In this document: one piece after another, positions 6,864-30,797 of the stretch
Layout of the letters: every line of letters starts with the position of its first letter
How positions within the stretch are numbered: position 1 is the first letter of the stretch
Source: Schmidtea nova
Taxonomy: Eukaryota
NCBI GenBank assembly: GCA_044892505.1
Contig: CM097884.1
Coordinates: forward strand, 121,272,001-121,336,000
Direction: 5' to 3'
Length of the DNA stretch: 64,000 bases
Notes under the pieces: generated by a model
Databases searched by the model: none
What the model was told of the DNA's origin: nothing
The model's input: only the letters and a program-made list of their open reading frames with translations
Position numbers and translations under genes: made by a program

Positions 6864-6938
6864 CTCTTTTATACATTGGTCAATACAGCTTGACACTTTT
6901 TATTTTACATAATTTATTTACACTTGGTTTCCGCACAT

Positions 6939-8000: not shown

Positions 8001-8113
8001 TTCTATAATTACAGATAAAAAGAATATTTAATCATTTTTTATTTTTATTGTTTTTGATTATTCGTTAATTTATATTGTTTCTATACATTTTATTTACATG
8101 GTCACTTCCTTCA

Positions 8114-9490: not shown

Positions 9491-9583
9491 TCTCTACAAT
9501 AATATATACATTCGACTTGTCATTTATTTTTTGGTTTTTCTTGTTTTTATTTTTACATATTTACAATTTTCCGCTTTATTTAT

Positions 9584-9940: not shown

Positions 9941-10065
9941 TTTCTAAATTATATACATCATTTACTTTGTTTTTCTAGCTTTTTACAATTTTTATAATAT
10001 CGATACCCATACTATTACGGTAATGCTTTGTTATTTACACTATTATTTACAGTCATAATCCGCCC

Positions 10066-13000: not shown

Positions 13001-13520
13001 AAGCATAATACTTCCATTTGGTAAGACACTCTTTCGGTTTCGTTTGTGGCAACTCTTGCTTCGGGTCTTTTTATTGTAATTCGTATAGTTGGTGTTGTTT
13101 GCTTATCTATTGCCTGGGGTTTTTTGTTTTCTGTTCCCTGTGTCTCTGTTCTTCCACATTTTCCGAGGATGTAATCTCCTTTGGGTGACTGTTGTATTGT
13201 CATGGCTGCTTTAGGTGTTTGGTATTTTGCACATGCGATTGTGTTGTGTGATCTTGGATGCTTTTGTTTTCTAACGGTGCATATTTTGTACCAGGTATCT
13301 AGATCTAAGTCATTGATCTCTATGATCTCTTGCTCGTGTTTTGAGATTCTGCAATCCATCGGGCTATTTTGTTCCGTGGTTTTGTCCTTTTTCGACCAAC
13401 ATACTCGTTCGATTCCTTTTGCGTTTTTTATTTGTATTATTGCCCTTTCTTCACATGTCATTCCCTGACTTGGGTTAATTAACGTTAAAATCACTGTTAG
13501 TAATAGTAATTCTGGTTTGA
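10066..13520 (-). other. C-terminal duplicated extracellular modules: signal-like segment, several FN3-like repeats, TM helix (two copies)
   Basis: Repeated pattern ICW..C...I.I..L....Y.IC......C..Y.T. Paired segments LLTVILTLINP / LTIILTLINR and VLCLALILII / VCIALILAM. TM helices at ~11750-11818 and ~10250-10325. Confidence 0.6.
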
Positions 13521-16500
13521 AGAATGGTTTTATGGTTGATTTATAACCTGTTCTTTGGGTGTCATTTTTATCTCCTTGGTCGTTTGTTCCTTGTTCTCCC
13601 TCTTCATCTCTTTGTTTTTCGTCTTCACCTTTCTTTCCTTCCTTGTCTCGTTTCTTGTCTTTTCTCTCGTTTTCCTCTTTATCGGGTGGTTCGTGATCGC
13701 TTGGATTTTCTGAGTTGTTACCGTCGTCACTATCTGTGTTGTCATCTCCCCCTGGCTCGTCGAAAATGTCGTCCTCGACATTGATTTCTTCTATTAGTTT
13801 CGCATACGCTAATGTCGTTAGATTACTTGCCTCAAATTCTTGTGTTTCTATTTGCTCTGGTATTACTTTGTTAGTGGATTTATGTTCCAAGATTTCCTTT
13901 TTGGCCTTGATCCAATTGTTGATGTATGTCTTCATCAATTCTTTCCATTTGCCTGTGTATTTTTCCTCTTTCGGGCTGGTTGTGATTTTTAGATCTTTTC
14001 TTTCCATAAACATCTTCAATATCTCTGGCCATTTATACGTTATTAAGGCACTTCTTATGCACCAGTTTTGGTTATGTTCGGTAAACTTATTAATCCTGAA
14101 TGCTGGTTCGTTAGTATTAGGATTTATCCACGTAAGTATTGATTCTGTTAGTTCGACGTTGTTCATCATTGCTAGTACACTGGGTTTCTTGACCGTATCA
14201 GTTAGGTGATCTATTTCTTCCTGATTTGGGATTGTTTTAATGAAATTGACCATTTCCCAATTATGTGTTAATAATGCTACATCCAATATTGAATTATCTT
14301 TCTCTGTTTTGCCTGTAAGTCCTGCACCTGCTTTGTATAGTTCTTCTAATACCTTTGTTTTCGTTTTGGCCCTTGCTGCAAATACCATAAGTGTATCTCC
14401 TTTCTCGTCTATCATATTCATATTGCTGCCGCAATTTAGCATTACTCTTGCAATTTCCATTACTTTCCTATCTTTGCCATTTCGTAGAGCTCTATGTATG
14501 GGCATTATTCCGTCTTTTGGTAATAGGAATGTTACTGGCATTTCCTTTTTTATTATTACTATGTCGTTACCATTGTATGTTCCTTTTGCGTATGCGTGTA
14601 CTTTTTCAACTAATGCGCCGAGTATTTCCAGTGCATGTTTACTATTCTCGAATTCCGGTAACAATTCTTTTGCTTTTTCTTGTATCGCATCTAGTCTAGC
14701 TTGGTATGGTGCTTCTGCTTTGAAGAGTGGTGTGAGTTTCTTGTTACTTTCTCTTTCTTTTTTCTCTAAAACCTGTTTGCATTTTTCGGGATGGTTTAAG
14801 ATTTTTACTAATTCCTCATATTCGCTTACTATCGTCTGGTATATCTCGTTAAAATTGCTTATGTCTCTGTATGTTATTAGTTTATCAAGTGGTTTCGCGC
14901 ACCATTTCCTAATCTTATTGAATAAGGCTTCCTTCTCTTTATCGAATTTGTATTCTTCTTCATTCTTTGTGATGTTTATGTTTCCTCTGTCTAATAAGGT
15001 TAGTAATGTCTTCTGATCACAAGTAAATTTCAGAAGATATCTTAACAGCGCGTTTTGTCCTTCGCTGTATACTTCGTTTATGTCTAAGACCCATGTATCC
15101 TCTTCTGGTCGTTTCCATTTGATTAACTTACGGATCGTGTTGCATTTACCAATTTTGATTGCTTCTTTGATAATGTCTCTTTTAACCAATTCGTCTATCT
15201 CCCAAGTGCAGTTAGCTATTATGTATTTCAGCATTGGTTGGTGAGAACTCCATATTACGTGATTTAGCACTGTTTTGTCCTCTCTATCTCGTTCTGTCCA
15301 ACTGAAATGAGCTTTTATCAATAGATCTATCATTTCTTTATCTGCTTGGTGGATTGCGGCTGTCATTAATGGAGTTTCTTGTTCCCGATTCCCTACGTCC
15401 AAGTTTTGGTTTGTTTCTTTTGCGATTTTTAGGAATTCTTTTGCTCTTTCAATGTTTTTACACTCTATCGCATTATGTAAGGCTGGTTGTCCTCCTACAT
15501 CTTTCAATAAGAGTATTTCAGGGATTTTTTCCAATAATTCAGAAATAATTGGTTCGGTTGGTAATCCTTGTGCGTAACGGCTAATTATATGTCTAATATC
15601 CCTTGATATGCCTGCTTCGTCTCTAACATGCCATCTTCCCATTATCTCTCTCGCCTTCAATATGATTTCTTTATTTCTGATTTCTTTTTGCCTTATTTCT
15701 GCTTTGTCGTCTTCGGTTGCATTAGCTCTGAGCATATTTATCCTGGCTGTTTGTGATCTGGTTATTATTCGATTTTCTGGTGTTGTAGTTATCGTTTTAG
15801 GCACTTTCTTACATCTGCAGGTGTTTACGTATATGGGTCGTATTAACGGTCGATTTACTAGCTTAACTTTGACATTATTGTCCTTCTTGTATATAATTTC
15901 GTAAGGTCCTCTTCCAGGTCTTTGGAGTTTCTTAACAGTTCCTGGTATTATTTCGGGAGTTTCTATTATCACCCAATCTCCTGGTTTTAGATCGTTTGCC
16001 TTTACATTTTTCTTTTGGTCGTGTAAATCCTTATAACTTTCCTGATAAAATTTAATGTTGAGTTCTGCCGTTTTCCATATTTCCTGCATTCTCTCTTTGA
16101 ATTTGGTTACGTAGTCGTCATCTTCCATATATTGCGATAATGGTGGCTGATACTCTAAATCTATGGGCATGTTGCATTCTCTTCCATACATAAGTTGAAA
16201 TGGGCTTAGTTTTGTTGCTGCATGTATCGACATTCGGTATGCCATTAAACATAATTTTATATATTCGTCCCAATCAGTCTGATGTCTGCTGACGTAATTT
16301 GATAACATTCTGATCAATGTACCATTGAATCGCTCCGTTTGTCCATTCGTTTGCGGGTGATATGGTGAAGTTCTCAATTTTGCTATTCTGAAATAGTTTG
16401 TCACCTCGTTCAATAACTCACTCATGAAGTTAGTTCCTTGGTCTGTGAGTATTTGTTTTGGAGTTCCGTATCTGCAACATATTTCTTCCACTAGAATTTT

Positions 16501-19500
16501 TGCTACGGTTTTTGCTTTTTGATCTTGCATGGCAAATGCTTCCGGGAATTTCGTCAGATAATCCGTTATCACCAATATATAAATATTTCCGTTTAGACTT
16601 TCTGGTAATGGTCCTATTACGTCCATTGCTATAGTTGTCATTGGCTCTGCTGGTATCGGCATTGGTTGTAGCGGGTTCTTCCATTTCTTCCCACTATCCT
16701 TTCTGGTTGCGCAAGTTAGACAATTTTTAATCCATTCCTTTATATCTTCTTCCATTGTTCGCCAATAATATTTTTGTCTCATACGATTTATGGTCTTTTT
16801 CTCGGACATATGACCTCCCAATTTCCCATCATGGTATTGGATCATTATCTCTTTCCTTCTGTTTTCTGGTAAACACATCAATCTCTTTTCACCGTCTTGT
16901 ATTAACAACCATCCTTTATTTATTATGTAGCGATGTTGATATTTTCCTATATGTTCCTTTAGTTCCTTATTATCCTTGAATGCCTCCATATTTCGAGACG
17001 TTAGGAACTCTAGGATCTGTCCTAATTCTTTGTCTTCCTGTTGATCTTTCTTTAACTCACTAAAATCTAAATCCTCCGCTATTAATACACAAATTCGTTG
17101 TACATCAGGATCGGTTAATTCCGGAAATGTCAGTCTTGACATACAATCTGCATTCGCATTCGTTTTTCCTGATTTAAATTTTATGTCTGGTGAGTACTCC
17201 TGTAACTGCATTGCCCATCGCATTAATCTACTGGATGTTTCCTTGTGCTGTCCTAACCATACAAGCGGTTGGTGATCTGTTGTTATGCAGATGATGTGAC
17301 CCCATAGTAAATATTTAAAGTGTTTAATAGCTAATATAATTGCTAATGCTTCCCGTTCTGTTACTGAGTAATTTTTCTCGTGCTTTTTGAATGTCCGGCT
17401 ATAATATCCGATTACCCGTTCTTTTCCTTCGTCGTCGTATTGTCCTAATACTGCTCCTGCTGCATATCCGCTTGCATCTGTTGCAAGTAGGAATGGCTTC
17501 TTGAAGTCTGGGTGTACCAATATGGGTGCGGTTATCAGTTTATCTCTCAATGTTTCAAAAGCTGTTTGTTGTTCATCTCCCCATATGAATGATACGTCTT
17601 TCTTTACCAGCTCCTGTATAGGCTTTGCTATTCCGGCGTAATCTTTTATAAACTTTCTATAATATCCACATAGTCCGAGAAATTCTTGTATTTGGGTTAT
17701 TGTTTTTGGTACTGTGCATTCTTTTACTTTGTCGATATTTCTAGGATCCGGTTCTTTTCCTTTTGCTGACACTATATGTCCTAAAAATGTAACCTTTTCT
17801 TTTGCCCAATCGCATTTTGATGGCTTGAGTTTTAACTTCCATTGTCTAAGCCTAACGAATACATCTCGAATATCCTGTATGTGTTGTTCGAATGTACTAG
17901 AGTAAATCAATAAGTCGTCGATGTAGACCATGCACTGCTTTATTCCGTGGGTGACGAAATTCATGCATCTCTGAAATGATGCTGGTGCGTTCGTTAATCC
18001 AAATGGCATTTTCCGAAATTGATATAGGTCTCTACCGATGGTAAAGGCAGTTTTCTCTTTATCTTCTTCCTTCATTTTTATTTGCCAGTATCCGCTTTTC
18101 AGATCTAACGACGTAAAATATGCTGCTCCTTGTAATGTTAATAGCATTTCATTAATGTCTGGTAATGGGTAAGTATCCCTTTTTGTCACAGTATTCAATC
18201 TTCGATAGTCTATGCAGAATCTCTGTGTTCCGTCTTTCTTCTTTACCATTACCACTGGAAATTGCCAGGGTGAACAACTTGGTTCGATTACTTCTGCATC
18301 CAACATTTTCTTCACTTCTGCTTCTGCTACTGCTTTCTGTGCTTCCGCTAATTTGTACGGCCTTAATGCAATTGGTGTTTCATCTGTTAATGGTATTGTA
18401 TGTAGTGTGACATCACATGTTCCTAGATCTAAATCGGATGCTGCAAATATATCCTTATACTCTATCAGGAGTTTTTCTAGCTGCTTCCTTTGATCCTCAT
18501 TTAATAATTCACTATCAATATTCCAGGTTGGTTCTTTATCTTTCTCTGCTCCTTCTATTGGCAGTTCGATATCCATCATTGGGGTTAATTTACCTAATCT
18601 TTCGTTTTCGTATATTATTTTGTCCTCTTCGTCGAAGTTTACTACGTTTATTGGGATTTCTCCATTATCGTTTATGTTAACTAGTCCTCTTGCCATTGGC
18701 AACGCTTTTCTTTTCTCGAATCTCTTACTTGGTTCGAAAATCATATCCCCTTGGATTGTCGGATCTATTTTTACGTAACATATTTTCTCCTTTCTTGCGG
18801 GTATTATCATTTGCTTTGAACTTGTCACTTTGGCTTCTATTGCGCATATTTTTCCTGTGCTATCCTTTAGTCTCATTGTTCCGAGGTCGATTACAATCTC
18901 TTTAAATAATGCTGGCATCAAATCTGTTCCGATGATGCAAGGTACGCTTAATGCTGGTATAACTGCTACGTATGTATCGATTTCCGTGTTTAAGTGGCGT
19001 ATTTTTACCCACCATCTTCCTGCTACTTCTACAACTTCTTTGCTACATGCAATTATATGGACGTTTGTCCTTTCTATATCTCGTCTTTGCTCTTGTGGTA
19101 TCCATTTGATGTCGATGGCAGAAATGTTTGCTCCCGTGTCGATCATTGCTTCGATTTCCCTTCCGTTAATCTCTATTGTCGTGGTTAATACTGGACCTGT
19201 GTTTGATGACATCACTGCGATCGTGTGTGTATCTCCTTGTGGATCCACACTTCTACATCTTCTCATTTTATAATCTTCTGGTATCATGGGATATACATTT
19301 GTCATTGGCATCATTTGCATCGTGCTATTTTTTCCTCCTTGTAGTGGTTCTTGATACATTGTTGGTGGAGGTGCGTAACATTTCCATGCGTCGGCTGGAT
19401 TCTTTTCGATGTATTGTGGTGCTTGGTTCTTATACACTTGTCCTCCCTTATAGTCGTCATCGTCGTCATCGTCGTCACTCGAATCATTTTGGGTTTTATA

Positions 19501-22500
19501 TCCTTTCATCCTCTCCCATAAACCTTTTCTTTCTCTCTTGAGCTGTTGTCTTGCTTGTTCGTCATTCATTATCTTTTTAAATTTTCGTCCTACTTCTTCA
19601 TCTGTTCCCTTCATTTTTGCAAGTATCTTCAACAATCTCTTTATTCGATGTATGTCCTTTGAGTGTCCGTGCAACACCATCGTTTTCGCGAGGAATGGTA
19701 AAAATCCTACTACCATTTTCCAATTCACTTTCTTTTCTCTCTTGTAAATATCGAAACACGCTAACATTTGCGTTATTATCACTCTGACGATTTGTATTAT
19801 TAATATAACCCCCAGTATTCCGGCCATCATTTGTCCGAATATCAGAAATCTTCCCCACATTGCTTTCATCATATTTTCGGTGGCTTTCTTGAAATGTGCT
19901 GGTGACAACAACAGTTCATAATTCGGTCCTTCTCGATAATTCGTTCCTCCCGTTATCGTTACGATATTTGACAGTAATGCTTCTCTTCTTGCCGGGAATA
20001 ATATATTCTGCCTTGCTGCTTCTAAATCCTTTGGACTATATATTCCGTTGTTTGAGACATCTACGTCGCTGAATTGCCTATCCTTTGACAACTGCATTAG
20101 CTCGAATTCTCTTGGTGCTATCACTTCGGATCTTCCTGGGAACATAACCCATTTACCATCTGGTTTCTGATAAAGCGGTCCATACGCATTACTACAGTTG
20201 AATGGATTTGGTTCAAACCCTGGTGGATTGATGATTCTCGTCACCGGTTGGACGTATCGTACTTTTCCTTTGTAATCGATTTCTAACTCATTTGTACAGG
20301 TTCCAGGTTTCAACTGTGTTGTTGCTGCTAGCGACGCGTGTGTTTTTTCGCAAATGTATACGTACATTGCTTCTCCGACCACTCTTCCGAAATGTCCTTC
20401 TCTCAGTGGTAATAATGGCATCGCGCTATCTGGATTCGTAATCGCTACGGTCAATTTCGTCTTTAATATTTCTCGATTCAGTATACAATCATTGTTTATC
20501 AGATCGTAGTACACTTTTTGTAATGAGGCTTGTCCTCTATGGAATAGGAAATCCATTTTATTATTCACATATAGGTGTAGTTTGATATCCATTGTGTCGA
20601 TTTTGGGTTTCGCGTTTGGCACTTCTTGTTTTGACACATATATTCCTGGGTAATTTGTTTCGTATACCGTTGTACTACACTTGAGGGTTGCTTTTCCTTT
20701 TATGAACCTCATTCCCACATCCTGATTTGTGGTTATCAATACTGTTGGTGTGGCTCTCATCTCTATTCGTTTTTCTCTATGATCTGGTTTCAGTTGTCTT
20801 TTATTCTCTAAAGCTTCCTTGAGATGCTTTGCTCTCTCTTTGTCGTCATCGTCTTCTTCCTGGAACGTTTTTCCTTGGATTTCGTCGAACTTTGCTCCTT
20901 GTAGCAGTTGTAACTGACATTCGTTTACCTTTGGTTTGTACACTAATGTTGACATTCCCGTTTGACACATGCTCCTGTCGATTTTACACATGGATAACGT
21001 TTTCATTTCTCCCGTTGTTGGTTCGAAGAATGCTTCGTAGCTTTTTAGTTCGACTATATACGTATCCATCACCACTAAGTTGGTTGCGGGTACTCCGAAT
21101 ATCGGGTAGGTTTCTCCTTGACAATATCCTTCTCCTCCCGTAATCCGTCCTGCTACATAGTATGTCTGTTGCATCATCATTCCTGGCTTTCCTCTTATCT
21201 TGATTTTATCTCTTGTTGTTACTTCTCCATGTTTAAACAGTGCTTCGCAGTCTTCTCCTTGTAACACGATTGGTTCTCTTTCCGTTCCTGTCATGACAAT
21301 TGCTGAATAATGTCCTCTCCCGCAGTAGAATGCGAATCTCGTCTTCTGCACTTTACATTCATTCACCATTGTCTTTATGAGTTCTGCTTCTTGATACACG
21401 TGGTACCATTGTTCCTTTTTAATCTTTTGCAACTCTACCGGAGTTGCATCTTTGCATTGCTCCGTACCTCTCAATGAATACTTTTCTCCTAACTTCATTT
21501 GGTCGCAATCAAACACTTCGAATGCTGTTGCGCTATCGGTGCTAATCATCCATATCAACATCATCATTATTATAGCACTCAGATTCATTGATGACTTCGC
21601 GTTTCCTGTTCCTGCTTGTTCTTTTTCTAACTCTTCCAATATTTTTTCAAATTTCTTTTTCATATTCTTGGCTTGTGTTTTCTTCTGGTTAGTTTTTATA
21701 AATGTTTCCCATCCTCCTTTGTTAATGACGTAGGGTTCTATTTCTCTAGCTATAATCTTTGCGGTATTTTTTATATGTATCTCTAATGCAGTGGGTTTTG
21801 GTCGACCTCTACTCAGTGTCAACAGATTGTAGATCGTGTATGCAATAGCTATTACGTATTTGTTATCTGTTTCCGCTCCTTCTGTCAGTTTCTTTATTAA
21901 CATAGTGGTTCCTTGCCAGTCTAAGTGATTTGATTTCGTCTTTTCTTTTATGAATTCCGGTAAGATGGGTGCGATTGCGCTGTGTAGTGACTTCGCCTTT
22001 TCGCTTATCTCAGTTATCCGCCAGTATTTTCTTAATTCCGGATCAATTATTGCCAATATTTCCATTATTGTTTTCGATATCCATTCCTCCCCCTGACATA
22101 TTGGTGTTGTCTCTTTTTCTTTCATCTCCGCAATTTTATTTAATTTCCTTAAACATAATTCCCATTGATCTTGTCTCTTTTCGTCTTTATTTCTTACAAC
22201 TACAGTTGCTGGGTCTGTCTTAGGTCTACCTCTAGGTCGTTTATCCATTCCTGTACCTGTTTCCACAAATCTTGTTGTTCGTCCGGTTTCCTCGGTGACA
22301 TCTCTTGGTTCGTTAGCTCTTTCTTCTAACCATCTTTCCATTTCTTGTGTTAATTGTACATTTTCGACATTCGCTCCTCTCGTTTCGTCTTCTGTTAGAT
22401 CGTTTACTTCTTCTATTATTATTTCTTCTTCGACTTCTGCTTCTCCGGTGTTGGTTACTTGTATTGTCGTAGGTAGTTCTTGTATTCTTTCGAAAATGTT

Positions 22501-23922
22501 ATCGTCCTTTTCCCTTGTTAATTCGGTTAACTCTTCTATCATATCGTCACTATCCGTTAAAATTTCGTCCACGTCGTATGGTTGTGGTGGAGTCCTTTCT
22601 CTGGTTCCTCTGGGTGTTGTCTCAGATCGTCTTGAACTTGTTCCTGGCGTTAGTACTGGTTTCATCGGACTTGGCGTACTTATACTTCCGTGTGGTTTAT
22701 GGTTTTCTTCTTTACGTTTCAATGGTTGACCCGCTATTGCTTCTACTGTCAATGTATTCATGAGGTCTAATTGTGCTGGTGTTATTCCGATTTCCAAACT
22801 GTTATCTAATGATCGTCCTTGGTGTTGTAAATGGAATGGTGGTTCGTATCTCAATTTCTTTTTAATATCTCGAATTTTTTCTGCTATTCCTACCCACAAC
22901 TCTTCCTTATCCTTGTTTGGGTATATTATTCTTAAATGTACTTTCTGTGGAATTTCCTGCGAGAATTCTTGATTTCTCCATTTCCTAATTACGTGGTCTA
23001 GTTGTTCCGGACACCACTCGTTAACTCTTTTATATTCCGCGATTGCTTTTGCTACTTTACGCAAGCATGTTATATCTTCCCCATTTACCACGAAAAAATC
23101 TGCGAGACCCTTTATTACTTTTCTCTTACCGTGCGCATTAGTTTTTAATATTTCGACAAATTCTTCCGTTTTTTGCTTTTCCCTTTCTAGCCACATGGCC
23201 GCGGTTTCTGGTCCATCTAGGTCTATTGGCGTAGCTTTCCTTGTCACCATGCAAACTCTTCCTATCTCTGGTTCGCAGTCATCTTCAATTCCTCTTTTAT
23301 ATTCTTCTTCATATTCCCCTTCTTTTGGTTCCCAACATTTTCCTTTCTCGTTCCATTGTTTTTCTACGGGTGTTCGTATTCGTCTGTTGAGATTGCGTTC
23401 TTCTAATACATTTTCCCACTCTGGCCAAATTCGCCAATTTCGATAAATTTCTACTATTTGTTGTAATTTGCGCACAATTTCTTTCCGTCGTTCCCGTTCT
23501 CTTTTCTGATCTTTAGCAGTTTCCCTTGGTGTATCGTCCATTCTGCTAACGTGGATTGTTTGGTGATTATCCCATATACCGATTTTATATAGTCGTCTCT
23601 CATCGTGATTCCATAATACATGTTCGTTGTATTGTATGATTATGTCGTCTTCCCATTCGTCTTCTGGTTCTCTTTGCACTAGTGTCTCTTTGATGACCTT
23701 TATTAATTCCTTTATGGTACAGTCTGCTACCACTTCAATTTCTTTGGTGTCTTCATTAGGCAATGCTACTGAAATTTTTAGATCTGTTATTTTCCCTTGT
23801 CTGAACATTGTTTTTCCCATTTTTGCGATTAATTTGTCGTGTGAGATTTGTGACCATCTCGTGTGACTTGTGTCACGTATGCACTCAATACATCGTTTCA
23901 ATTTCTCGTATTCGCTTCTCAT
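10066..23922 (-). CDS. pol: 4618-aa polyprotein: Ubl x2, AT-hook, Bcl-2-like, Env (class III, chuvirus/gB-like), PR, dUTPase-like spacer, RT, RNase H, IN, ankyrin repeats, FN3-like/TM modules
   Basis: PR IDTG (19132-19140); RT YIDD (17914-17925) with MPFGLTNAPASFQR; RH TDASG / EREALA / TDHQPL; IN HHCC plus MDVIG, TDQG, TERFNG and a GPY motif. No stop over 13.9 kb. Confidence 0.96.
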   Translation of the reverse strand: MRSEYEKLKRCIECIRDTSHTRWSQISHDKLIAKMGKTMFRQGKITDLKISVALPNEDTKEIEVVADCTIKELIKVIKETLVQREPEDEWEDDIIIQYNEHVLWNHDERRLYKIGIWDNHQTIHVSRMDDTPRETAKDQKRERERRKEIVRKLQQIVEIYRNWRIWPEWENVLEERNLNRRIRTPVEKQWNEKGKCWEPKEGEYEEEYKRGIEDDCEPEIGRVCMVTRKATPIDLDGPETAAMWLEREKQKTEEFVEILKTNAHGKRKVIKGLADFFVVNGEDITCLRKVAKAIAEYKRVNEWCPEQLDHVIRKWRNQEFSQEIPQKVHLRIIYPNKDKEELWVGIAEKIRDIKKKLRYEPPFHLQHQGRSLDNSLEIGITPAQLDLMNTLTVEAIAGQPLKRKEENHKPHGSISTPSPMKPVLTPGTSSRRSETTPRGTRERTPPQPYDVDEILTDSDDMIEELTELTREKDDNIFERIQELPTTIQVTNTGEAEVEEEIIIEEVNDLTEDETRGANVENVQLTQEMERWLEERANEPRDVTEETGRTTRFVETGTGMDKRPRGRPKTDPATVVVRNKDEKRQDQWELCLRKLNKIAEMKEKETTPICQGEEWISKTIMEILAIIDPELRKYWRITEISEKAKSLHSAIAPILPEFIKEKTKSNHLDWQGTTMLIKKLTEGAETDNKYVIAIAYTIYNLLTLSRGRPKPTALEIHIKNTAKIIAREIEPYVINKGGWETFIKTNQKKTQAKNMKKKFEKILEELEKEQAGTGNAKSSMNLSAIIMMMLIWMISTDSATAFEVFDCDQMKLGEKYSLRGTEQCKDATPVELQKIKKEQWYHVYQEAELIKTMVNECKVQKTRFAFYCGRGHYSAIVMTGTEREPIVLQGEDCEALFKHGEVTTRDKIKIRGKPGMMMQQTYYVAGRITGGEGYCQGETYPIFGVPATNLVVMDTYIVELKSYEAFFEPTTGEMKTLSMCKIDRSMCQTGMSTLVYKPKVNECQLQLLQGAKFDEIQGKTFQEEDDDDKERAKHLKEALENKRQLKPDHREKRIEMRATPTVLITTNQDVGMRFIKGKATLKCSTTVYETNYPGIYVSKQEVPNAKPKIDTMDIKLHLYVNNKMDFLFHRGQASLQKVYYDLINNDCILNREILKTKLTVAITNPDSAMPLLPLREGHFGRVVGEAMYVYICEKTHASLAATTQLKPGTCTNELEIDYKGKVRYVQPVTRIINPPGFEPNPFNCSNAYGPLYQKPDGKWVMFPGRSEVIAPREFELMQLSKDRQFSDVDVSNNGIYSPKDLEAARQNILFPARREALLSNIVTITGGTNYREGPNYELLLSPAHFKKATENMMKAMWGRFLIFGQMMAGILGVILIIQIVRVIITQMLACFDIYKREKKVNWKMVVGFLPFLAKTMVLHGHSKDIHRIKRLLKILAKMKGTDEEVGRKFKKIMNDEQARQQLKRERKGLWERMKGYKTQNDSSDDDDDDDDYKGGQVYKNQAPQYIEKNPADAWKCYAPPPTMYQEPLQGGKNSTMQMMPMTNVYPMIPEDYKMRRCRSVDPQGDTHTIAVMSSNTGPVLTTTIEINGREIEAMIDTGANISAIDIKWIPQEQRRDIERTNVHIIACSKEVVEVAGRWWVKIRHLNTEIDTYVAVIPALSVPCIIGTDLMPALFKEIVIDLGTMRLKDSTGKICAIEAKVTSSKQMIIPARKEKICYVKIDPTIQGDMIFEPSKRFEKRKALPMARGLVNINDNGEIPINVVNFDEEDKIIYENERLGKLTPMMDIELPIEGAEKDKEPTWNIDSELLNEDQRKQLEKLLIEYKDIFAASDLDLGTCDVTLHTIPLTDETPIALRPYKLAEAQKAVAEAEVKKMLDAEVIEPSCSPWQFPVVMVKKKDGTQRFCIDYRRLNTVTKRDTYPLPDINEMLLTLQGAAYFTSLDLKSGYWQIKMKEEDKEKTAFTIGRDLYQFRKMPFGLTNAPASFQRCMNFVTHGIKQCMVYIDDLLIYSSTFEQHIQDIRDVFVRLRQWKLKLKPSKCDWAKEKVTFLGHIVSAKGKEPDPRNIDKVKECTVPKTITQIQEFLGLCGYYRKFIKDYAGIAKPIQELVKKDVSFIWGDEQQTAFETLRDKLITAPILVHPDFKKPFLLATDASGYAAGAVLGQYDDEGKERVIGYYSRTFKKHEKNYSVTEREALAIILAIKHFKYLLWGHIICITTDHQPLVWLGQHKETSSRLMRWAMQLQEYSPDIKFKSGKTNANADCMSRLTFPELTDPDVQRICVLIAEDLDFSELKKDQQEDKELGQILEFLTSRNMEAFKDNKELKEHIGKYQHRYIINKGWLLIQDGEKRLMCLPENRRKEIMIQYHDGKLGGHMSEKKTINRMRQKYYWRTMEEDIKEWIKNCLTCATRKDSGKKWKNPLQPMPIPAEPMTTIAMDVIGPLPESLNGNIYILVITDYLTKFPEAFAMQDQKAKTVAKILVEEICCRYGTPKQILTDQGTNFMSELLNEVTNYFRIAKLRTSPYHPQTNGQTERFNGTLIRMLSNYVSRHQTDWDEYIKLCLMAYRMSIHAATKLSPFQLMYGRECNMPIDLEYQPPLSQYMEDDDYVTKFKERMQEIWKTAELNIKFYQESYKDLHDQKKNVKANDLKPGDWVIIETPEIIPGTVKKLQRPGRGPYEIIYKKDNNVKVKLVNRPLIRPIYVNTCRCKKVPKTITTTPENRIITRSQTARINMLRANATEDDKAEIRQKEIRNKEIILKAREIMGRWHVRDEAGISRDIRHIISRYAQGLPTEPIISELLEKIPEILLLKDVGGQPALHNAIECKNIERAKEFLKIAKETNQNLDVGNREQETPLMTAAIHQADKEMIDLLIKAHFSWTERDREDKTVLNHVIWSSHQPMLKYIIANCTWEIDELVKRDIIKEAIKIGKCNTIRKLIKWKRPEEDTWVLDINEVYSEGQNALLRYLLKFTCDQKTLLTLLDRGNINITKNEEEYKFDKEKEALFNKIRKWCAKPLDKLITYRDISNFNEIYQTIVSEYEELVKILNHPEKCKQVLEKKERESNKKLTPLFKAEAPYQARLDAIQEKAKELLPEFENSKHALEILGALVEKVHAYAKGTYNGNDIVIIKKEMPVTFLLPKDGIMPIHRALRNGKDRKVMEIARVMLNCGSNMNMIDEKGDTLMVFAARAKTKTKVLEELYKAGAGLTGKTEKDNSILDVALLTHNWEMVNFIKTIPNQEEIDHLTDTVKKPSVLAMMNNVELTESILTWINPNTNEPAFRINKFTEHNQNWCIRSALITYKWPEILKMFMERKDLKITTSPKEEKYTGKWKELMKTYINNWIKAKKEILEHKSTNKVIPEQIETQEFEASNLTTLAYAKLIEEINVEDDIFDEPGGDDNTDSDDGNNSENPSDHEPPDKEENERKDKKRDKEGKKGEDEKQRDEEGEQGTNDQGDKNDTQRTGYKSTIKPFFKPELLLLTVILTLINPSQGMTCEERAIIQIKNAKGIERVCWSKKDKTTEQNSPMDCRISKHEQEIIEINDLDLDTWYKICTVRKQKHPRSHNTIACAKYQTPKAAMTIQQSPKGDYILGKCGRTETQGTENKKPQAIDKQTTPTIRITIKRPEARVATNETERVSYQMEVLCLALILIIIKRLEEGIEIETMTITEVEDTQNTNIKCWARNNEEIGVNEIRKSRKPTTNKVIKVSEVKADKMYKLCLLEKETNKKGTTKCKTFQPGEVIKFRRRTRKRNKQIKRKINITLEIKEIEPNVKGVCWRKYEKETNERKTPQCRTSTGATTIQIKGLESKQTYEICLVKKNDQITINDLECGIYTTSSGTRTKTLTRKNKRRQRNKGKPKYTTTFKNNKQPISQEVTTKSEKKTSATLTLWKIENKTLEICWILVQKYIRRQSRECRKTNKEIKIERLQFNSEYEVCTIEKTDALGNQQERCETYYTPVNATSKGITRKLEFRELSQTNEQMDAEKTITDPQAKWTPEEVIKEVKRKQEEREQLMRKLKGQYGIMYNQSEPIQTDENKEIKELIGLGILTATIPVIIALSAIWIRKISPRKSTTQWLNIDNTSHGVEILEARKEPKPTRSKKEAKIVKPGMNNKDKEIKEIKGEEKKYERRTRSLPQSSKWLGLTIILTLINRDEATNLQAGIKIVNVQEVEKICWNREDEPIGKDNPLKCIIRKSDQDVVRIEGMYRGIMHRICIIGKEKKAGLPKTVVCQKYETPGLEWYRVKPTKKEIKNTIDQPATQIRNTTDKPGEGEKSTNKTRERISPQQECVCIALILAMSKRIDKGIIIEQMAITIRKTSSNKLCWGTYNEPRKEYQVQTSDESRTNKEIEIQEIQMNEEGSICIWEKGIQEGIEHCKTFQKGEILKFDEEELTKTERTLTLTGLDQTVKGICWTKHNPEGEEDNLTHCKEIKNKEKVELKKMEVNRTYAICTFTRKGSEKPECGLYQISEKLQQQIEPGSVENQTKENNVKQLLNRHWSTQEVMNKVKNQVQKEKKPEAQTQNEIKANQNKIKATNRGKTVIGLISIGILIAYGIMTTSMIIYWRYRKRNKATAIQWPDIKIMKQRIEIPEEIQQEFQRRTKGKEFWKQIEDEERYEEKTIMMV
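14150..15510 (-). other. Ankyrin-repeat region fused after the integrase
   Basis: GGQPALHNAIE, QETPLMTAAIH, DKTVLNHVIW, GIMPIHRALRNG, KGDTLMVFAARA, DNSILDVALL. Confidence 0.85.
19640..21590 (-). other. env: Envelope glycoprotein domain, chuvirus-glycoprotein-like / herpes gB-type class III fusogen
   Basis: Signal MNLSAIIMMMLIWMISTDSATA; AFEVFDC; ECKVQKTRFAFYCG; furin site REKR (20767-20778); YVNNKMDF..CILNREIL; GEAMYVYIC; NGIYSPKDLEAARQNILFPA; TM WGRFLIFG..ILGVILIIQIV. Confidence 0.85.
21690..22170 (-). other. Bcl-2-like helical domain (clear BH2, degenerate BH1)
   Basis: EIEPYVINKGGWETFIK resembles Bcl-xL BH2 LEPWIQENGGWDTFVE. The preceding helical spacing fits a Bcl-2 fold, but NWGR is absent. 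Confidence 0.55.
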
Positions 23923-23932
23923 TAACTCTTTT

Positions 23933-26900
23933 CTATGTTTTTTTGACTTGTGGTATGATTTGTTCTATCAGGGAATTTAGATTCTTTCGTAAGACTCGTT
24001 CTTTCTCGTATTCTAAACGAGGTTTTATTCTCCTTTCGAAGCACGTGTTTGCCTCCCTTGCAACTTCTTGTAGGTTCTCTTCTTCCTTTTCATCGCATAT
24101 TGATAATAGGGTTATTTCTCCTGGCCATATACCTGTTTCTACTAAGTGCGTTCTTTTCTTTACGAGTCTATTCTGCGAATAGATGAATTTGTTTTTATAT
24201 GAGCTCCCTAGTCTATCCTCTACCCATCTGTAGATATCGTCTGTAAATGGAGTTTTGATCCAGATTCTTGGTGTAGATGTATTTATTATTATTGAGATGG
24301 TGTAATTGAGGAGTGGTTCCTCTATTAATTTCCCTACGTATCGATTCAACATGTCTACTTCCCGGTCTTGTAACCATTCTTTGTAGTTCATTTGTAATAA
24401 TGCTTTCATGAATTTCCGGTATTGTTTCTTGTCCATGAACTCTTCGTTATATATTACTTCTAGCGAGTTATCTAATAATTTCTGGATTTCATCTACTTTT
24501 ATCTGTGTAGGTTCTGAGGTCTTTATTACTTCTCTCTCTTTATTTTCGTCTTCGGATTCATTTAATATGTCTCCTGCTAGGCTACTGATGTCACTATCTT
24601 CTTCATCGGAAAACTCTCTGGTGGTATTTCTTAACATATTAATATGTGCTGTTTGGTTCGTTTCCCCTTGTATATTCTCCGTTGGTTTTGTTTTGTTTTT
24701 TCTGATTTCTGGTGTTAGTTCATTTTTGTCCTCTATTACTTCGACTTTTTCCATTTTCTTTCCCAACTCGTCTATCTCTTTTAAACGTCTTCTTATCATT
24801 TTTCCTTCAAATATTCGCCGGATTCGGGTTTCGTGACGTATTGGTGGTGGAATTTCTTCTGGTTCTATTTCTTTAATTCTCATCACATTTCTTTTTGTCT
24901 CTGTTACTCCCACGTTTTCCCATATATCCGTTAATTTCAATTTTACTGATGGTGCATCTCCTATTTGTAAGAACGCTTCTCTGGGCAGTTTCGTTACTCC
25001 CGGAATCATCTGGTTTACTTTATTGAACAGTATTTCCACCTTTTCTTTTGCGTTATATTGAAATCGAAACATATGGTCGTTGGGCATGATTACCATCATT
25101 CTTTTTTTCCAAATCTCCTTTCCCTCTTCCTGGTTTATCTCGGTTTCCACTTCCTTTTTTGTTTCTTTTTCTACTTCTTCATCTTTTTGTACTATCTCTT
25201 TTCGACTTTCGTTGTCGGCTGGATTCGGGTCTATCGAATTTATTTCCAGTGTGATTTCTTTCTCGCGAGTGTCTGTTTGGTTTGTTGCTCTTAACATGTT
25301 GATTCTTAGAGGTTGTCGTTCTCTTTCTTGCTGTTTTTGTTCATCCTCTCTTTGTATTCTTGCCCATTCCTGAGCGTGTCGTGCTTGACTTTCTCGATTC
25401 AACCGTTCGTTTTCGCTTTCTATTTTTCTCATCATGCTAATTTGCTGTTGATTGGTTTGCGGATTTCCTCTCGTCGTATTGTTTATGAGTTCCGTCAACC
25501 TTTGAACTTCTTGCATCAAATGAATTTCTTTGGGGGTGGTTTTGTTCTGATTATTGTTATTGTTGTTTTGTTGGTTTCCATAATCTGGTCGGTTTACGGT
25601 ATTTGCTTGATTTCCGTAATTTGGTCGGTTCCCATTACTCTGCCAGTTTCCTCGTTGATTACTTTTTTGTCCGCAATTTCTTGAATAGTGACCAGGTCGT
25701 CCGCAATTAAAACAGATTATTGTAGAACATCTGCTTTCCGAGTGTCCTTTAACTCCACATTTTCCGCAATTCAAATTTTGATAGCATTCTTGCTGCCAGT
25801 GTCCCAACTTCCCGCATGTTTTACATTGTTTTGTTTGTCTTTGAGGGTTGTAATTGTTTTGGTTTTCAAAGTTCTGCACTTTATTTCCTTCATTCCTTCG
25901 TTGAGGGGGTGGTCGGTTTAATTGTTGCGAATTTGGAATGTGATTGTTGAGATTTACCTCTGGTTCGGTTTGTGCTGTGTCCATGGCTAAATAAATTCTG
26001 CCCTCACTTCCTATCATATGCAATTCAAATCGGTTAGCTGTTTCTAACGCTTGATCTATGGTTTTGCATCCTTGACATCCTACTTGCGCTCTTATGTCGG
26101 GTCTTCTTAATCCTCCTATGAAGATAGCTGCCATTAACTCCTCGTTTATTGGACCTCCATCCTTGAATACCGATTTTGCTAATTTTTTCAGTTCGCTCGC
26201 GTATACCGCATTAGATTCATTCATCTTTTGTTTTCTCATTGAGAACTCTATGAATGCCTCGCTCAGCACTTTATTTATTCCAAATGTTTGTTGGAAAAAA
26301 TCCTTTATCGCTGTCCAGCTTGTAGGTGGATTGGTACCATTTTTCGCTTCCAAATATAGGTCCAATGCACTATCTTTCAAATATAACTGAATTCTGCTTA
26401 CCGTTGTTTCAGCTTTCCACTTGCATACCTCCACGAATATGCCAAATTCTTTTAAAAAGGTTTCTAATTTACTCGCATCTCCGTTAAACGGTTCTCCTGA
26501 AAATTTATCCTTTATTTCTTCTCTTGGTTCACCCATTTCAATTCCGCTGTCTTGAGTTATTTTACTTTCGTTTCCTCTTGTTTCTAGTTCGTTGTTATGT
26601 TCGTCTTCCGTTTTACTCGAGCTTGAATCGCTTTCTGTTTCTCTTATTCCTTCGTTATCTGATATTATACTTTCGTTATCACTCGCGTTGATTTCTATCT
26701 CTGGTTCTACCTCGTTTTCTACTTCTTCGATATTATCGTTGTTAGTTTCGTCGATTTCTCCTTCTTGTTCTATCTCGTGTTCTATTTCTTCGATATTATC
26801 GTTGTTAGTTTCGTCGCTCTCTATTTCACTTGCTTGGTTCTCCTTGGGTTCGGCTTGGTTTTCTTTGTTACTTGAGCTGTTGCTTACTATTGACAATTTA

Positions 26901-27118
26901 TCGTTTTCGGTAATCGATTTATCTCTTATTATTTTCCTCGATTTACTCCCTTGTGGGTTATCTTTGCCGGCTTTCTGCTTTTTTGTTGATTTTGTTGTAG
27001 TACTAGTTTTGTCTTTTTTGTTAATGTTGCTACCGACTTTCTTTTCCGTTGGCTTTACTACGACACTCTTTGCTCCTTTTCTCAAGGGGATTACTTTTGT
27101 ATACTCAATTTTCCTGTT
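23933..27118 (-). CDS. gag: Gag (~1050 aa): basic/acidic N-terminus, capsid, 3 CCHC knuckles, Q/N-rich linker, C-terminal Ubl-like extensions
   Basis: FSGEPFNGDASKLETFLKEF capsid-like start; CKTCGKLGHWQQEC, CGKCGVKGHSESRC and CFNCGRPGHYSRNC (25677-25826). Frame open from 27118; the track start at 27085 is TTG and the first ATG is at 26536. Confidence 0.9.
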   Translation of the reverse strand, partial: NRKIEYTKVIPLRKGAKSVVVKPTEKKVGSNINKKDKTSTTTKSTKKQKAGKDNPQGSKSRKIIRDKSITENDKLSIVSNSSSNKENQAEPKENQASEIESDETNNDNIEEIEHEIEQEGEIDETNNDNIEEVENEVEPEIEINASDNESIISDNEGIRETESDSSSSKTEDEHNNELETRGNESKITQDSGIEMGEPREEIKDKFSGEPFNGDASKLETFLKEFGIFVEVCKWKAETTVSRIQLYLKDSALDLYLEAKNGTNPPTSWTAIKDFFQQTFGINKVLSEAFIEFSMRKQKMNESNAVYASELKKLAKSVFKDGGPINEELMAAIFIGGLRRPDIRAQVGCQGCKTIDQALETANRFELHMIGSEGRIYLAMDTAQTEPEVNLNNHIPNSQQLNRPPPQRRNEGNKVQNFENQNNYNPQRQTKQCKTCGKLGHWQQECYQNLNCGKCGVKGHSESRCSTIICFNCGRPGHYSRNCGQKSNQRGNWQSNGNRPNYGNQANTVNRPDYGNQQNNNNNNQNKTTPKEIHLMQEVQRLTELINNTTRGNPQTNQQQISMMRKIESENERLNRESQARHAQEWARIQREDEQKQQERERQPLRINMLRATNQTDTREKEITLEINSIDPNPADNESRKEIVQKDEEVEKETKKEVETEINQEEGKEIWKKRMMVIMPNDHMFRFQYNAKEKVEILFNKVNQMIPGVTKLPREAFLQIGDAPSVKLKLTDIWENVGVTETKRNVMRIKEIEPEEIPPPIRHETRIRRIFEGKMIRRRLKEIDELGKKMEKVEVIEDKNELTPEIRKNKTKPTENIQGETNQTAHINMLRNTTREFSDEEDSDISSLAGDILNESEDENKEREVIKTSEPTQIKVDEIQKLLDNSLEVIYNEEFMDKKQYRKFMKALLQMNYKEWLQDREVDMLNRYVGKLIEEPLLNYTISIIINTSTPRIWIKTPFTDDIYRWVEDRLGSSYKNKFIYSQNRLVKKRTHLVETGIWPGEITLLSICDEKEEENLQEVAREANTCFERRIKPRLEYEKERVLRKNLNSLIEQIIPQVKKT

Positions 27119-27695
27119 CTATCTCTTATCGTTTCTGATTCTTCTTGCTTGATTGATTGATTTGATTGATTTGTATATCTAAAATACAAAGGTCCTCAAC
27201 GATACATTATTGTTATCGTCGCGCTTTTATTCCCTTTCTTTCGGGATTACTTATTACTGGGTTTTCATTATTTCCCATTCCCAGATTCCCCTTTATTTTT
27301 AGTCTATTTAAATTATCTATAGACTGGTCACAATTATCTGTTTATGTCGTAATAATTATCTATGTTTTATCAAATCAATTACTTTTCCCACAGTTTCCCA
27401 AATTATTGGTCGCTCGAGCGCTCTAATTCCCTGAGTCTTTCTGACTCGTTTATCATTATTTTATCATCTCTACTCATTATTCATCTCTAACTTATCCTTT
27501 TGTCTATTCTGCCGGTTTCTCCGGTCAGCTCCAATTTTTATTATTCTCCTTGCATGCTTTACTTAAGGTTGCATAATCAGCTTTACTCGCATTCTCTTAA
27601 CTACTAGTGCGCACTACTCTAAATCTCGTCGACGATTACACTATGGGTCTATATTCCTTCTATTACTATTTATCCGGATATATCTATAGTTCACT

Positions 27696-28015
27696 ATGGC
27701 TCTTCCGGCCTCAATTTTATATCTCACATGGCTCTATTGGCCTCAATTTAATCTCTCAAATGGCTCTCCTGGCCTCAATTTAATCTCTCAGATGGCTCTC
27801 TTGGCCTCAATTTAGTCTCTCCAATGGCTCTCTTGGCCTTAATTTAATCTCTCAAATGGCTCTATTGGCCTCAATTTAATCTCTCAAATGGCTCTCTTGG
27901 CCTTAATTTAACCTCTCAAATGGCTCTCTTGGCCTCAATTTAATCTCTCAAATGGCTCTATTGGCCTCAATTTAATCTCTCAAATGGCTCTCTTGGCCTT
28001 AATTTAATCTCTCCA
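27696..28015. repeat. Tandem array, 10 x 32 bp (ATGGCTCTCTTGGCCTCAATTTAATCTCTCAA)
   Basis: Units start every 32 nt from 27696 to 27984, with a partial unit near 28040. Confidence 0.95.
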
Positions 28016-28055
28016 TAACGCCTAGCTAGGTCATTCAATATGGCTCATTGGCCTC

Positions 28056-28260
28056 AACCCTTTTTTTCAAGGGACAAACCGCTAATAACCCTTTGTTTCA
28101 AGGGACAACTCTCATAACCCTTTGTTTCAAGGGACAAATCTCATAACCCTTTGTTTCAAGGGACAAATCTCCTAACCCTTTGTTTCAAGGGACAAATCTC
28201 ATAACCCTTTGTTTCAAGGGACAAATCTCATAACCCTTTGTTTCAAGGGACAAATCTCCT
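28056..28260. repeat. Tandem array, 7 x 29 bp (AACCCTTTGTTTCAAGGGACAAATCTCAT)
   Basis: Seven near-identical units, each with an internal inverted repeat CCCTT..AAGGG. Confidence 0.95.
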
Positions 28261-28741
28261 AAAACTTTACTTAACCGGTTAATCACAATTCCCTACTTCG
28301 CTAGCGATTAAAATTTCTCAGCTGAGTTATAACTACTTCTATGCGAGCTGACTATGCACCTTTTATTCTTTCCAAATTTGTCATTTATCTCTTTATTCTA
28401 TCATAACTAATTCCTGATCAGCCTGCTTCAACTTTTTATTTATTTTTCTTATGCGCGCTTTACTCCATCAAGATTTCCCTATCTCTCTTCCCAGCCAAAA
28501 TATACAAAAAGATCGCGTCGGTCCATTAATGCAGGATGTGGTGATCAATCACATCACAAAAACTTTCCAACATTTGCGATGGGCCCCTTTCTATACACCT
28601 TGAATAAGTTGATCAATCGGTGCTTCCCAATGGATTCTTATCGGACTACTTTGCAGTAGCTCAAAAATTATTTATATATGACAATTGTACCCATGATTTC
28701 CTTATTAATAAATCAATAAAATCCCATTCAAATTTTATTTA

Positions 28742-29203
28742 TTATAAATATACAATAATTTTATCGTCTATCATCAGGTTGCACATAGGACATAGGTCGC
28801 ACTTGCTGGCACATATTTTACAAAAACGAAAATGTCCGCAAGGTAAAAACATAATTTGTATCTCGCTATCCTCACATATATAGCACTGTCGGTATCTTTT
28901 CGCTGCTTCTACCCCCTGCGCCCTCCATCGATTGTATGTTGAGGTTAATTGTTGTTCTATTTGCCTGCACTTAATATTTAATTCTGCATTTTCTAATCGT
29001 GTTCTGTACCATTTGTAGCGGGTCTCTATGTCGATTTTTCTTGTTCTTTCTGTTATCTTTATTAATCCATCTGTTTCCTCAGTCTGTGTTGTGGGTTCCT
29101 GAAATTCAATTTCTCTAAATCGGTTTATTTTCTTGCCAATCGTTTCTAATGTTTCGCTTTCTGTGTTGAGAAATTCTTCAATTTCTTTCAGTTTTTCCTC
29201 CAT
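28742..29203 (-). CDS. 153-aa coiled-coil plus C-terminal IAP-type RING (C3HC4) E3-ligase-like protein; no BIR domain seen
   Basis: CYICEDSEIQIMFLPCGHFRFCKICASKCDLCPMCNLMIDDKIIVYL at the extreme C-terminus matches the cIAP/XIAP RING pattern. TTCAG 3 nt before the ATG; AATAAA after the stop. Confidence 0.85.
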   Translation of the reverse strand: MEEKLKEIEEFLNTESETLETIGKKINRFREIEFQEPTTQTEETDGLIKITERTRKIDIETRYKWYRTRLENAELNIKCRQIEQQLTSTYNRWRAQGVEAAKRYRQCYICEDSEIQIMFLPCGHFRFCKICASKCDLCPMCNLMIDDKIIVYL

Positions 29204-29516
29204 TTACTGAATAAATAATCGTTTTAACTCTATTATTTTTATCGTTTTAAGGTAGTAATATGTTTCGTTTTGTATCTTTTAATCTTTAACTCCCCCCGTG
29301 TTTCCGAAAATTGTCGTCCCGACAAATTATGCATGTATTTTAATTTTTAAATTCACTTTTGTTCACTGCCGTGTTGTTTATTTGATACAATAATTTACAT
29401 TTAATTATAACCTTTCTGTTTTTTTTTTTTTTTTTTTTTTATTAAATTAATTGACCCGAGCATTTTAAACCTCTCTGCAGATTTTACGTTTACATTTTTC
29501 CGATAAAACGAAGTTG

Positions 29517-29534
29517 ATCCCGGCTGAGCCCCCA
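29517..29534 (-). promoter_or_regulatory. Primer-binding site, tRNA-Pro
   Basis: TGGGGGCTCAGCCGGGAT is 16/18 identical to the MLV tRNA-Pro PBS TGGGGGCTCGTCCGGGAT and lies 6 nt from the 5' LTR. Confidence 0.88.
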
Positions 29535-30008
29535 AATTTATGCTGGGTTCATGGAGGGGTTAGATGAAAAATGTTCTAACAATGACTAGGGATCCCTCAT
29601 CCATGATCATGCATAAAATTGCAATTCTACACTCAAGCGCCCTTGATTATTTCCCTATATAATCAAGTTGGTGATGCGCAGGGTGGTTAAACAATGATGG
29701 GCAGGTGAGCACTATCGCTAGTACTACTCCCCATTTATGTTTACGGGTTCATTGCTGCCGTTAGAAGGACTTATGCTTTAATCATCTACTTATGTATTCC
29801 GCGTTAATCTTTCAGAAAATTTATTTTTATCATTGCTCAGTCTGCGAGAAGTATTTCAACGAATGCTCGCTTAATTATTTAATTATCTCTATTCGATATT
29901 TTGTAAACTGAATTTATACTTTTGTTCTATCTTTATCTAATCATTGGTAAAGTTAATTAAATCAATTTAAATGAACGATGAAATTCTTAAGCCAATACAA
30001 CAATTTAT

Positions 30009-30605
30009 TTAATTTTTAATGAGTTCGGTAAAAACTCCCGCCGGAGGAAAAATCTCCGTCAATAATGCCTCCTCGGTCATCTGATGTAGACCGTCTACTT
30101 GGCTTTGTAATCGCTGGGCAAATAATCTTCTCTGTCTCCGCCGTTTCTGCCCAATGCGCTTGCGTTTCTGGTGCGCAGTTGCCGGTGAGGTGGTTGAATT
30201 TGCTGTAGGAGCTGTCTCATTCCGACTTTCGATTAGATCGGTGACATCCGTGCCAATGGAGTTTACCGTCTTCTTTTCTGCTGTCCAAGCTTGGTACGTA
30301 ACAGGACGGATTTGCTCTCTGAGTTCTTTCTCGATATATGAGGCAGTTACGGAATGGAGGCATTTTCGGAGTTCTATCTTTGTAGCCTCCCATTCCATTT
30401 GATAATCGGCTGCCGTCTGTTGGGCGCGCTCGGTTTTACTGATTTGCTCCTTCATTCGGGCCGGAGCAAACCAGCTTTTGCGCAGATATTCAATCTGTGC
30501 CTCTGCTTTGATCAATTGTGCCTTGAGGAGACCCAATTCCTTATCCTGGGCTCTCCGAATCCGCCACCTCTTTTCCAATTCTCTCTGCATCAAATCGGGG
30601 TTCAT
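30009..30605 (-). CDS. LTR-encoded 198-aa Arg-rich/coiled-coil protein (5' LTR copy)
   Basis: Identical translation to 3427-4023. Confidence 0.6.
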   Translation of the reverse strand: MNPDLMQRELEKRWRIRRAQDKELGLLKAQLIKAEAQIEYLRKSWFAPARMKEQISKTERAQQTAADYQMEWEATKIELRKCLHSVTASYIEKELREQIRPVTYQAWTAEKKTVNSIGTDVTDLIESRNETAPTANSTTSPATAHQKRKRIGQKRRRQRRLFAQRLQSQVDGLHQMTEEALLTEIFPPAGVFTELIKN

Positions 30606-30797
30606 TCTATAATTTATTCAGGATATTTACTCTATGATTTAATTATATGAAAATTAAAATCTGATCATAGGATTATTAGGTCACGAATATGAACTATTAA
30701 AATGCGAAACAAAACAAAAAAAAATATAAATAAAAAAACAAAATTCACTAATGAACTATAATATTTTAATACAATTTCAACATTTGTTGATCAGTTT

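Follow-up and report, generated by a model that had tools for sequence, protein, structure and literature searches.

The locus holds a Burro-type LTR retrotransposon

The 64-kb stretch of DNA analysed here (the window) contains a full-length Ty3/Gypsy LTR retrotransposon on the minus strand (Table 1), whose two LTRs were 99.3% identical by repeat comparison within the window. The element is ~30 kb long, encodes a Gag-...-PR-RT-RH-IN polyprotein and carries, between Gag and PR, a BCL2-like domain followed by an in-frame Env. Judged by this layout against the published description of Burro elements, it is a Burro-type retrotransposon, a match that points to a planarian host. In the window copy, a frameshift near 23935-23964 splits Gag from the remaining polyprotein, which is held in a 4632-codon minus-strand frame at 10066-23964. 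A single frame of ~5640-5690 aa was found in many of 150 scored copies (genome G000, 1163 candidates), and in intact copies one frame runs in the order Gag, Bcl-2-like domain, helix, Env, TM helix and PR-RT-RH-IN. The ubiquitin-like (Ubl) domain had no Pfam match in the window; weak ubiquitin matches lay upstream of the Bcl-2-like domain in two relatives, P0003 (E 0.03) and P0001 (E 0.018).

Table 1. Features of the element and of its Bcl-2-like/Env junction, in window positions
Feature	Position	Strand	Basis
Burro-type Ty3/Gypsy LTR retrotransposon, full-length, 29.7 kb	2965..32658	-	LTR pair, TG...CA ends, 4-bp TSD (CCTG), layout per PMC6431247 section 7
5' LTR	29541..32658	-	repeat pair, 3.1 kb each
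3' LTR	2965..6091	-	repeat pair, 3.1 kb each
Gag with CCHC knuckles	23933..27118	-	Pfam
Probable ubiquitin-like domain (approximate limits)	23545..23787	-	weak ubiquitin matches in relatives and Burro description
Degenerate Bcl-2-like helical domain, aa 595-758	21691..22182	-	profile/family comparisons
BH1-equivalent position, TDNK instead of NWGR	21859..21870	-	alignments
BH2-like motif IEPYVINKGGWETF, aa 742-755	21700..21741	-	translation, alignments
Charged linker, 37 aa, part helical at low confidence	21589..21699	-	translation, fold prediction
Predicted internal cleavable Env signal peptide MNLSAIIMMMLIWMISTDSATA, aa 793-814	21523..21588	-	-3/-1 rule, PF24664 alignment in relatives
Env, Monjiviricetes-type fusion glycoprotein ectodomain and TM helix (aa 1379-1397)	19774..21522	-	PF24664 E 2e-70; hydropathy
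Protease, reverse transcriptase, RNase H, integrase, in frame downstream of Env	16354..19182	-	Pfam
Ankyrin repeats	15214..15480	-	Pfam
Polyprotein C-terminal part: signal-like helices (aa 3486, 4149), TM helices (aa 4051, 4552)	10255..13509	-	hydropathy, signal rule
Accessory TRAF-like ORF (weak RING, TRAF zinc fingers, MATH)	8114..9493	-	Pfam

After the integrase and ankyrin repeats, a unit comprising a signal-like helix, a Cys-/sequon-rich stretch and a TM helix occurs twice in the C-terminal part of the polyprotein. The sequence suggests that two extra type I membrane proteins may be cut from this part. The polyproteins of families B, C and D and of P0001 likewise end with two hydrophobic helices. 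The TRAF-like ORF inside the element is intronless; in family F, a MATH-like stretch (recognized by eye) lies within the polyprotein rather than in a separate ORF. Three further accessory ORFs occupy 9584-9943, 6939-8027 and 6294-6899 of the element, the last showing signal- and TM-like stretches. Outside the element, the window contains a second, decayed Gypsy element at 33118-38602, with 260-bp terminal repeats that are 99.6% identical and with broken RNase H and integrase frames, as well as a BED-finger/DUF659 (hAT-like) ORF at 55150-56652 (+) and a RING-finger ORF at 60666-61322 (-).

A BH2-like motif lies 37 residues upstream of a predicted Env signal helix

The junction, at 21523-22170 (-), corresponds to aa 599-814 of the 10066-23964 frame. 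The original prediction placed a BH2-like motif about 35 residues before a hydrophobic Env signal, and this arrangement was borne out, with 37 residues between F755, at the end of IEPYVINKGGWETF, and M793, at the start of MNLSAIIMMMLIWMISTDSATA. The helix has a 13-aa hydrophobic core and a predicted cut between ATA and FEVFDC, after A814; FEVFDC opens the Monjiviricetes-type fusion protein.

We compared signal anatomy across 13 lineages, one of which, P0001, was counted for this purpose only. As a rule of our own, in place of a predictor, we assumed a cut three residues ahead of [YF]DC and looked for small residues at -3/-1. A hydrophobic core, a short polar stretch and small residues at -3/-1 were present in all 13 lineages, the core measuring 8-18 aa (median 13). 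In the four relatives checked, the helix aligned to the PF24664 glycoprotein model from positions 4-7 onward. On this sequence anatomy the helix is very probably a cleavable signal and, given that in these relatives it matches the beginning of the model for the viral glycoprotein, is likely to be Env's own, carried in with Env, rather than a captured Bcl-2 tail. The distance from the BH2 Trp to the helix varied from 27 to 61 aa across lineages, and the linker sequence was poorly conserved. No Bcl-2-like domain was detected before the two signal-like helices far downstream in the window polyprotein (aa 3486, 4149), which indicates that internal signals are a general device of the polyprotein.

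The order from Gag to Env, with the Bcl-2-like domain in between, was fixed in 13/13 lineages. The relatives found were families B to F and E2 in G000, together with L099, P0001, P0003, P0005, P0006 and P0011; P0004 duplicates L099, and P0002, the top match of one relative search, was dropped as a false match to a repetitive protein. The Bcl-2 likeness of P0001 is weak, since its host-profile score was reached by 8 of 2000 shuffles and its scores with element profiles by 327 and 1469. In P0001, a 3700-aa metagenome relative, Ubl-like and protease-like stretches each occur twice.

G000 harbours at least seven envelope-bearing families that share the junction, several of them with more than 100 scored copies. 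Polyprotein lengths are ~5685 aa in family A, 3073 in B, 2992 in C, 2993 in D, 3442 in E and 4993 in F; E2 is also present. Three old derivatives of family C (L096, L097 and L098, 3/3 loci examined) retain Gag, the Bcl-2-like domain and the signal helix, after which all three run into a common sequence that is not Env and contains another hydrophobic stretch; they are likely to represent a deleted, non-autonomous subfamily that formerly spread. In-frame stops between the domain and the helix were observed at L099:3058-3060 and in L041, L116, L120 and L131, and are probably due to decay. Read-through may occur at the L099 stop, because this locus is otherwise open over 999 + 402 codons.

The probable Bcl-2 ancestry of the domain is traced through relatives

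Searches with the window domain alone returned no Pfam Bcl-2 (PF00452) match, as was the case for the family F rows, no PDB sequence match and nothing from a 5.8-billion-protein set or the ESM Atlas (best score 0.80); a viral contig search found no relative. HHalign gave 7-70% in the window-side comparisons, including 6.6% against host Bcl-2s. In six-frame searches of the window, a sister-family profile placed the Bcl-2-like frame at only E 0.21, and a host-Bcl-2 profile did not list it. The domain nevertheless scored 12.7 bits with a sister-only profile and 14.2 bits with a host-Bcl-2 profile, each reached by 0/2000 shuffles.

Homology to Bcl-2 is shown through relatives, in a chain from the window to family F, L099 and the Pfam-matching families, and not by this copy alone. 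The window domain aligned ungapped with family F over 165 aa (31% identity, E 9e-28), and family F matched L099 at E 5e-13. In an 11-row alignment (A7), 8 members matched Pfam Bcl-2 (best 8e-8), the exceptions being the window and two F rows. A profile of 11 element sequences retrieved Bcl-xL from the PDB at E 7e-7 and another element-only profile did so at E 3e-8, while a profile of the window and family F reached Bcl-xL only at E 1.3-2, below unrelated matches. Sister families gave an HHalign value of 95.7% against host Bcl-2s. Of 150 matches in a Pfam Bcl-2 scan of G000, 30 loci were examined; 16 proved to be element copies and 14 host-type genes. The element copies carried GGW, linker, helix and [YF]DC in the same order as the window. 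The BH2 motif (W..xxGGW) reads YVINKGGW here, the last Trp being invariant in 11/11 A7 rows and the first replaced by Tyr.

The fold check that had been proposed for the region gave a mixed result. The model predicted from the 11-row alignment was all-helical but of low confidence (pLDDT 54.6, pTM 0.56), and Foldseek returned no match to it at E ≤ 0.001. Among the matches listed, 14-3-3 proteins ranked first and Bcl-xL 16th, although Bcl-xL had the top probability (0.72) and TM-score (0.37/0.52, 0.52 by target) among them. The single-sequence fold (pLDDT 44.7) gave no significant Foldseek result. In a tree of 23 domains, a branch without firm support (82/88) set apart 15 element-type rows, three of them (P0007, P0008 and P0010) labelled by likeness only; P0001, P0002 and P0004 were omitted. 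The tree is compatible with a single capture of a Bcl-2-like domain by the elements. The links through sister families support the original prediction of a Bcl-2-derived region, and we consider Bcl-2 ancestry of the window domain highly probable.

The BH1 groove motif is lost and the whole region is constrained

The NWGR of BH1 is replaced by TDNK in the window and by EPAK, EDTK, TTEV, DKEV, DKDK, NRDR and DENR in sisters. NWGR was lost in 11/11 aligned element sequences; most families still have Arg or Lys where BH1 has its Arg. NWDR, seen in L041, was rejected as a trait of family C, being present in 1 locus only; the family-C tally was 19 NRDR, 6 NQDR, 1 NWDR and 1 NRVR (28/30 loci tallied, one of these a mis-parse). 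The Gly and Arg of NWGR are described as important for Bcl-2 family interactions (PMC9027176), and in the account given in bioRxiv 10.64898/2026.06.23.733989 the G138A change in Bcl-xL impairs Bax binding and leaves BAD binding intact. Because NWGR is TDNK here and absent from sister families, canonical BH3 binding or pro-survival activity by the window domain appears doubtful.

We examined selection in 29 family-A copies, 28 of them usable, picked by Env DNA, as picking by protein score biases dN/dS. The region is under purifying selection. Shared variants in the Bcl-2-like domain comprised 49 synonymous and 10 non-synonymous changes (ratio 0.05), and ratios were 0.09 in the acidic spacer upstream, 0.14 in the linker, 0.14 in the signal (few sites) and 0.02 in Env. 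Selection does not single out the Bcl-2-like domain, because the whole region is constrained, the upstream spacer nearly as much (0.09 versus 0.05). Between families the domain drifts faster than Env, with domain/Env identities of 31/46, 43/88 (C/D), 45/71 and 50/81%.

The signal helix may tether a Gag-side product to the ER

The best explanation of the junction, held tentatively and with somewhat less than even confidence, is that a degenerate Bcl-2-like domain is followed by the internal signal of Env and that the cut piece, Gag-Ubl-Bcl-2-like, would be tethered to the ER by this helix. Gag, the Ubl and the Bcl-2-like domain would lie in the cytosol, with the helix crossing the ER membrane and routing Env into the lumen; the Env TM helix would act as the stop-transfer element, so that Pol ends up in the cytosol again. 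With a signal peptidase cut after A814, the helix would remain at the C-terminus of a cytosolic Gag-side product of ~920-1870 aa, depending on the family. Targeting of Env would be the main task of the helix and tethering a by-product, in parallel with rubella capsid and HCV core; the capsid precursor, Env and Pol would be brought onto one membrane. A lasting tether seems to us evenly balanced, and the shortness of the hydrophobic core counts against it. In the least certain step, the tethered domain would dampen ER cell-death or stress signalling through a non-canonical surface, which we propose since the NWGR motif is gone. A role of the domain in cell death is predicted at not quite even confidence; the cargo context includes the TRAF-like ORF of the window element, beside the IAP-type domain of Burro1 (PMC13465017).

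The original prediction went further, with the Env signal serving as the tail anchor of a viral Bcl-2 (vBcl-2) once Env is cleaved off. A predicted cleavable signal would indeed stay on the upstream piece, and the proposed topology is reasonable because rubella capsid and HCV core provide precedents. 'Tail anchor of a vBcl-2' nevertheless overstates the case. Tail-anchored proteins carry one TM helix, at the very end of the chain as translated, and insert it post-translationally; the window helix is internal, with Env and Pol following, and could become C-terminal only after cleavage. The upstream piece would be the long Gag-to-Bcl-2-like chain and not a free vBcl-2, which would need an additional upstream cut by the element's protease. 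With a short helix that aligns to the glycoprotein family's N-terminus and a linker of variable length, we saw no sign of selection for a tail anchor.

Several other readings were weighed against the tethered Gag-side product. In the first, which we regard as unlikely, the tether is transient: signal peptide peptidase (SPP), or the element's protease cutting the linker, would free the Gag-side product, and the Bcl-2-like domain would work without a tail, like HCV core. The short hydrophobic cores and unconserved linkers fit this reading, as do the removal of the E1 signal from HCV core by SPP (PMC3970144) and the finding that rubella capsid lacking its signal still blocks apoptosis (PMC3040668). 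Against it, rubella capsid retains its signal (PMC3040668), and a non-systematic look at the linker revealed no protease site.

It is quite unlikely that a tail-anchored vBcl-2 is released and acts as cellular Bcl-2 does, binding BH3 ligands and blocking apoptosis. The homology established through relatives speaks for this reading, as does the order of BH2 then helix, which resembles that of cellular Bcl-2s (host examples). A retained viral signal can target mitochondria (PMC3040668), some BH3 binding can survive loss of the BH1 Gly (bioRxiv 10.64898/2026.06.23.733989), and the BH1 Arg position is Arg or Lys in most families. It is opposed by the loss of NWGR, with its important Gly and Arg (PMC9027176), from every aligned element sequence and by its dependence on the upstream protease cut. 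Moreover, in host-type Bcl-2s the last helix is followed by basic residues and then the stop, which is not the case for the window helix.

Poxvirus Bcl-2-fold proteins act as non-apoptotic immune-signalling scaffolds. A comparable repurposing of the fold here, either as such a scaffold or as a matrix-like protein joining capsid to envelope, is distinctly improbable in our estimate. It is consistent with the fixed position between Gag and Env, the loss of the groove motif while the core helices and GGW persist, and the fast divergence between families. The element's other cargo, however, points to death/ubiquitin signalling, and the matrix role is without structural support.

Very improbable is an Env made from a separate message, spliced or internally initiated, that starts at M793; the helix would then be a normal N-terminal signal, with no connection to the Bcl-2-like domain in the working product. 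A Met lies within five residues of the helix in 5/13 lineages, the window included, which leaves room for such a message, and the linker stops in L099, L041 and 3/29 family-A loci fit it too. Three of the 13 lineages, however, lack any Met between BH2 and the helix, and the polyprotein route is therefore favoured; inspection by eye shows purine-rich sequence ahead of M793 and no tract resembling a splice acceptor, and linker variants are mostly synonymous. Finally, a coincidental GGW match in an unrelated helical fold is barely credible: the window copy has no direct match and Foldseek was not significant, but the ungapped match to family F with its onward links, the same position in every family, the shuffle tests and the leading Foldseek probability and TM-score of Bcl-xL among the matches listed all argue against it.

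Comparison with known systems

Burro elements are abundant in planarian genomes. Section 7 of PMC6431247, citing Grohme et al. 2018, describes a BCL2-like motif in Burro preceded by a Ubi2/SUMO-like domain and places the Env homology 'between BCL2 and PR'; because it reports both, the Bcl-2-like domain and its position before Env were already known. As described there, Burro elements (Burro1/GYPSM1, Burro-2 to -4) resemble the window element in their ~30-kb length, LTRs and one huge polyprotein, in which Gag, Ubl (probable in the window element), BCL2-like domain, in-frame mononegavirus-like Env, PR-RT-RH-IN and ankyrins are common to both, as is MATH/TRAF cargo. The window element differs in encoding TRAF separately, in an ORF downstream of the polyprotein, and in its long polyprotein C-terminal part with extra signal and TM helices; Pfam found no BIR domain in it, unlike the Burro description. 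Stem-cell protection is credited, in the account given by PMC13465017, to the IAP-type (RING/BIR) region of Burro1 and not to BCL2. The Burro account in section 7 of PMC6431247 is silent on a signal helix or topology, and we found no functional or topological account of the Burro BCL2-Env junction in the accessible literature; Lee et al., Dev Cell 2026, may be relevant to this point, as may its supplements. The retained-signal reading of the junction is a hypothesis backed by precedent; neither the domain nor its place before Env is new.

With cellular and viral Bcl-2 proteins (PF00452; Bcl-xL, KsBcl-2) the window domain shares a homologous alpha5-alpha6/BH2 core and a hydrophobic helix C-terminal to BH2. 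Unlike them, it has lost NWGR and is embedded in a polyprotein, and its helix is short, precedes 550 aa of Env and matches a glycoprotein N-terminus in alignment. The junction also bears on whether death can still be regulated by a Bcl-2 domain that lacks NWGR.

The closest precedents for the topology are viral. Rubella capsid, which is anti-apoptotic, retains the signal of the downstream glycoprotein E2 as a membrane anchor and depends on it to reach mitochondria, though it can block apoptosis without it (PMC3040668); unlike the window element, rubella is an unrelated virus, and the accessible part of PMC3040668 describes no Bcl-2 homology of the capsid. In HCV core-E1, as proposed for the window, a polyprotein-internal signal is cut by signal peptidase and first left on the capsid protein; unlike the window arrangement, SPP then removes this helix (PMC3970144), and no Bcl-2 domain is present. 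A broader generalization, which we offer as speculative and rather doubtful, is that the polyprotein built by Burro-type elements is flavivirus-like and multi-spanning, with a single helix that would both deliver Env to the ER lumen and anchor a capsid-fused Bcl-2-like death regulator at the assembly membrane, the junction having been fixed once in an ancestor and kept in at least 13 lineages. The junction is a small testable unit for asking whether the retained-signal device of rubella and HCV also operates in a retroelement.
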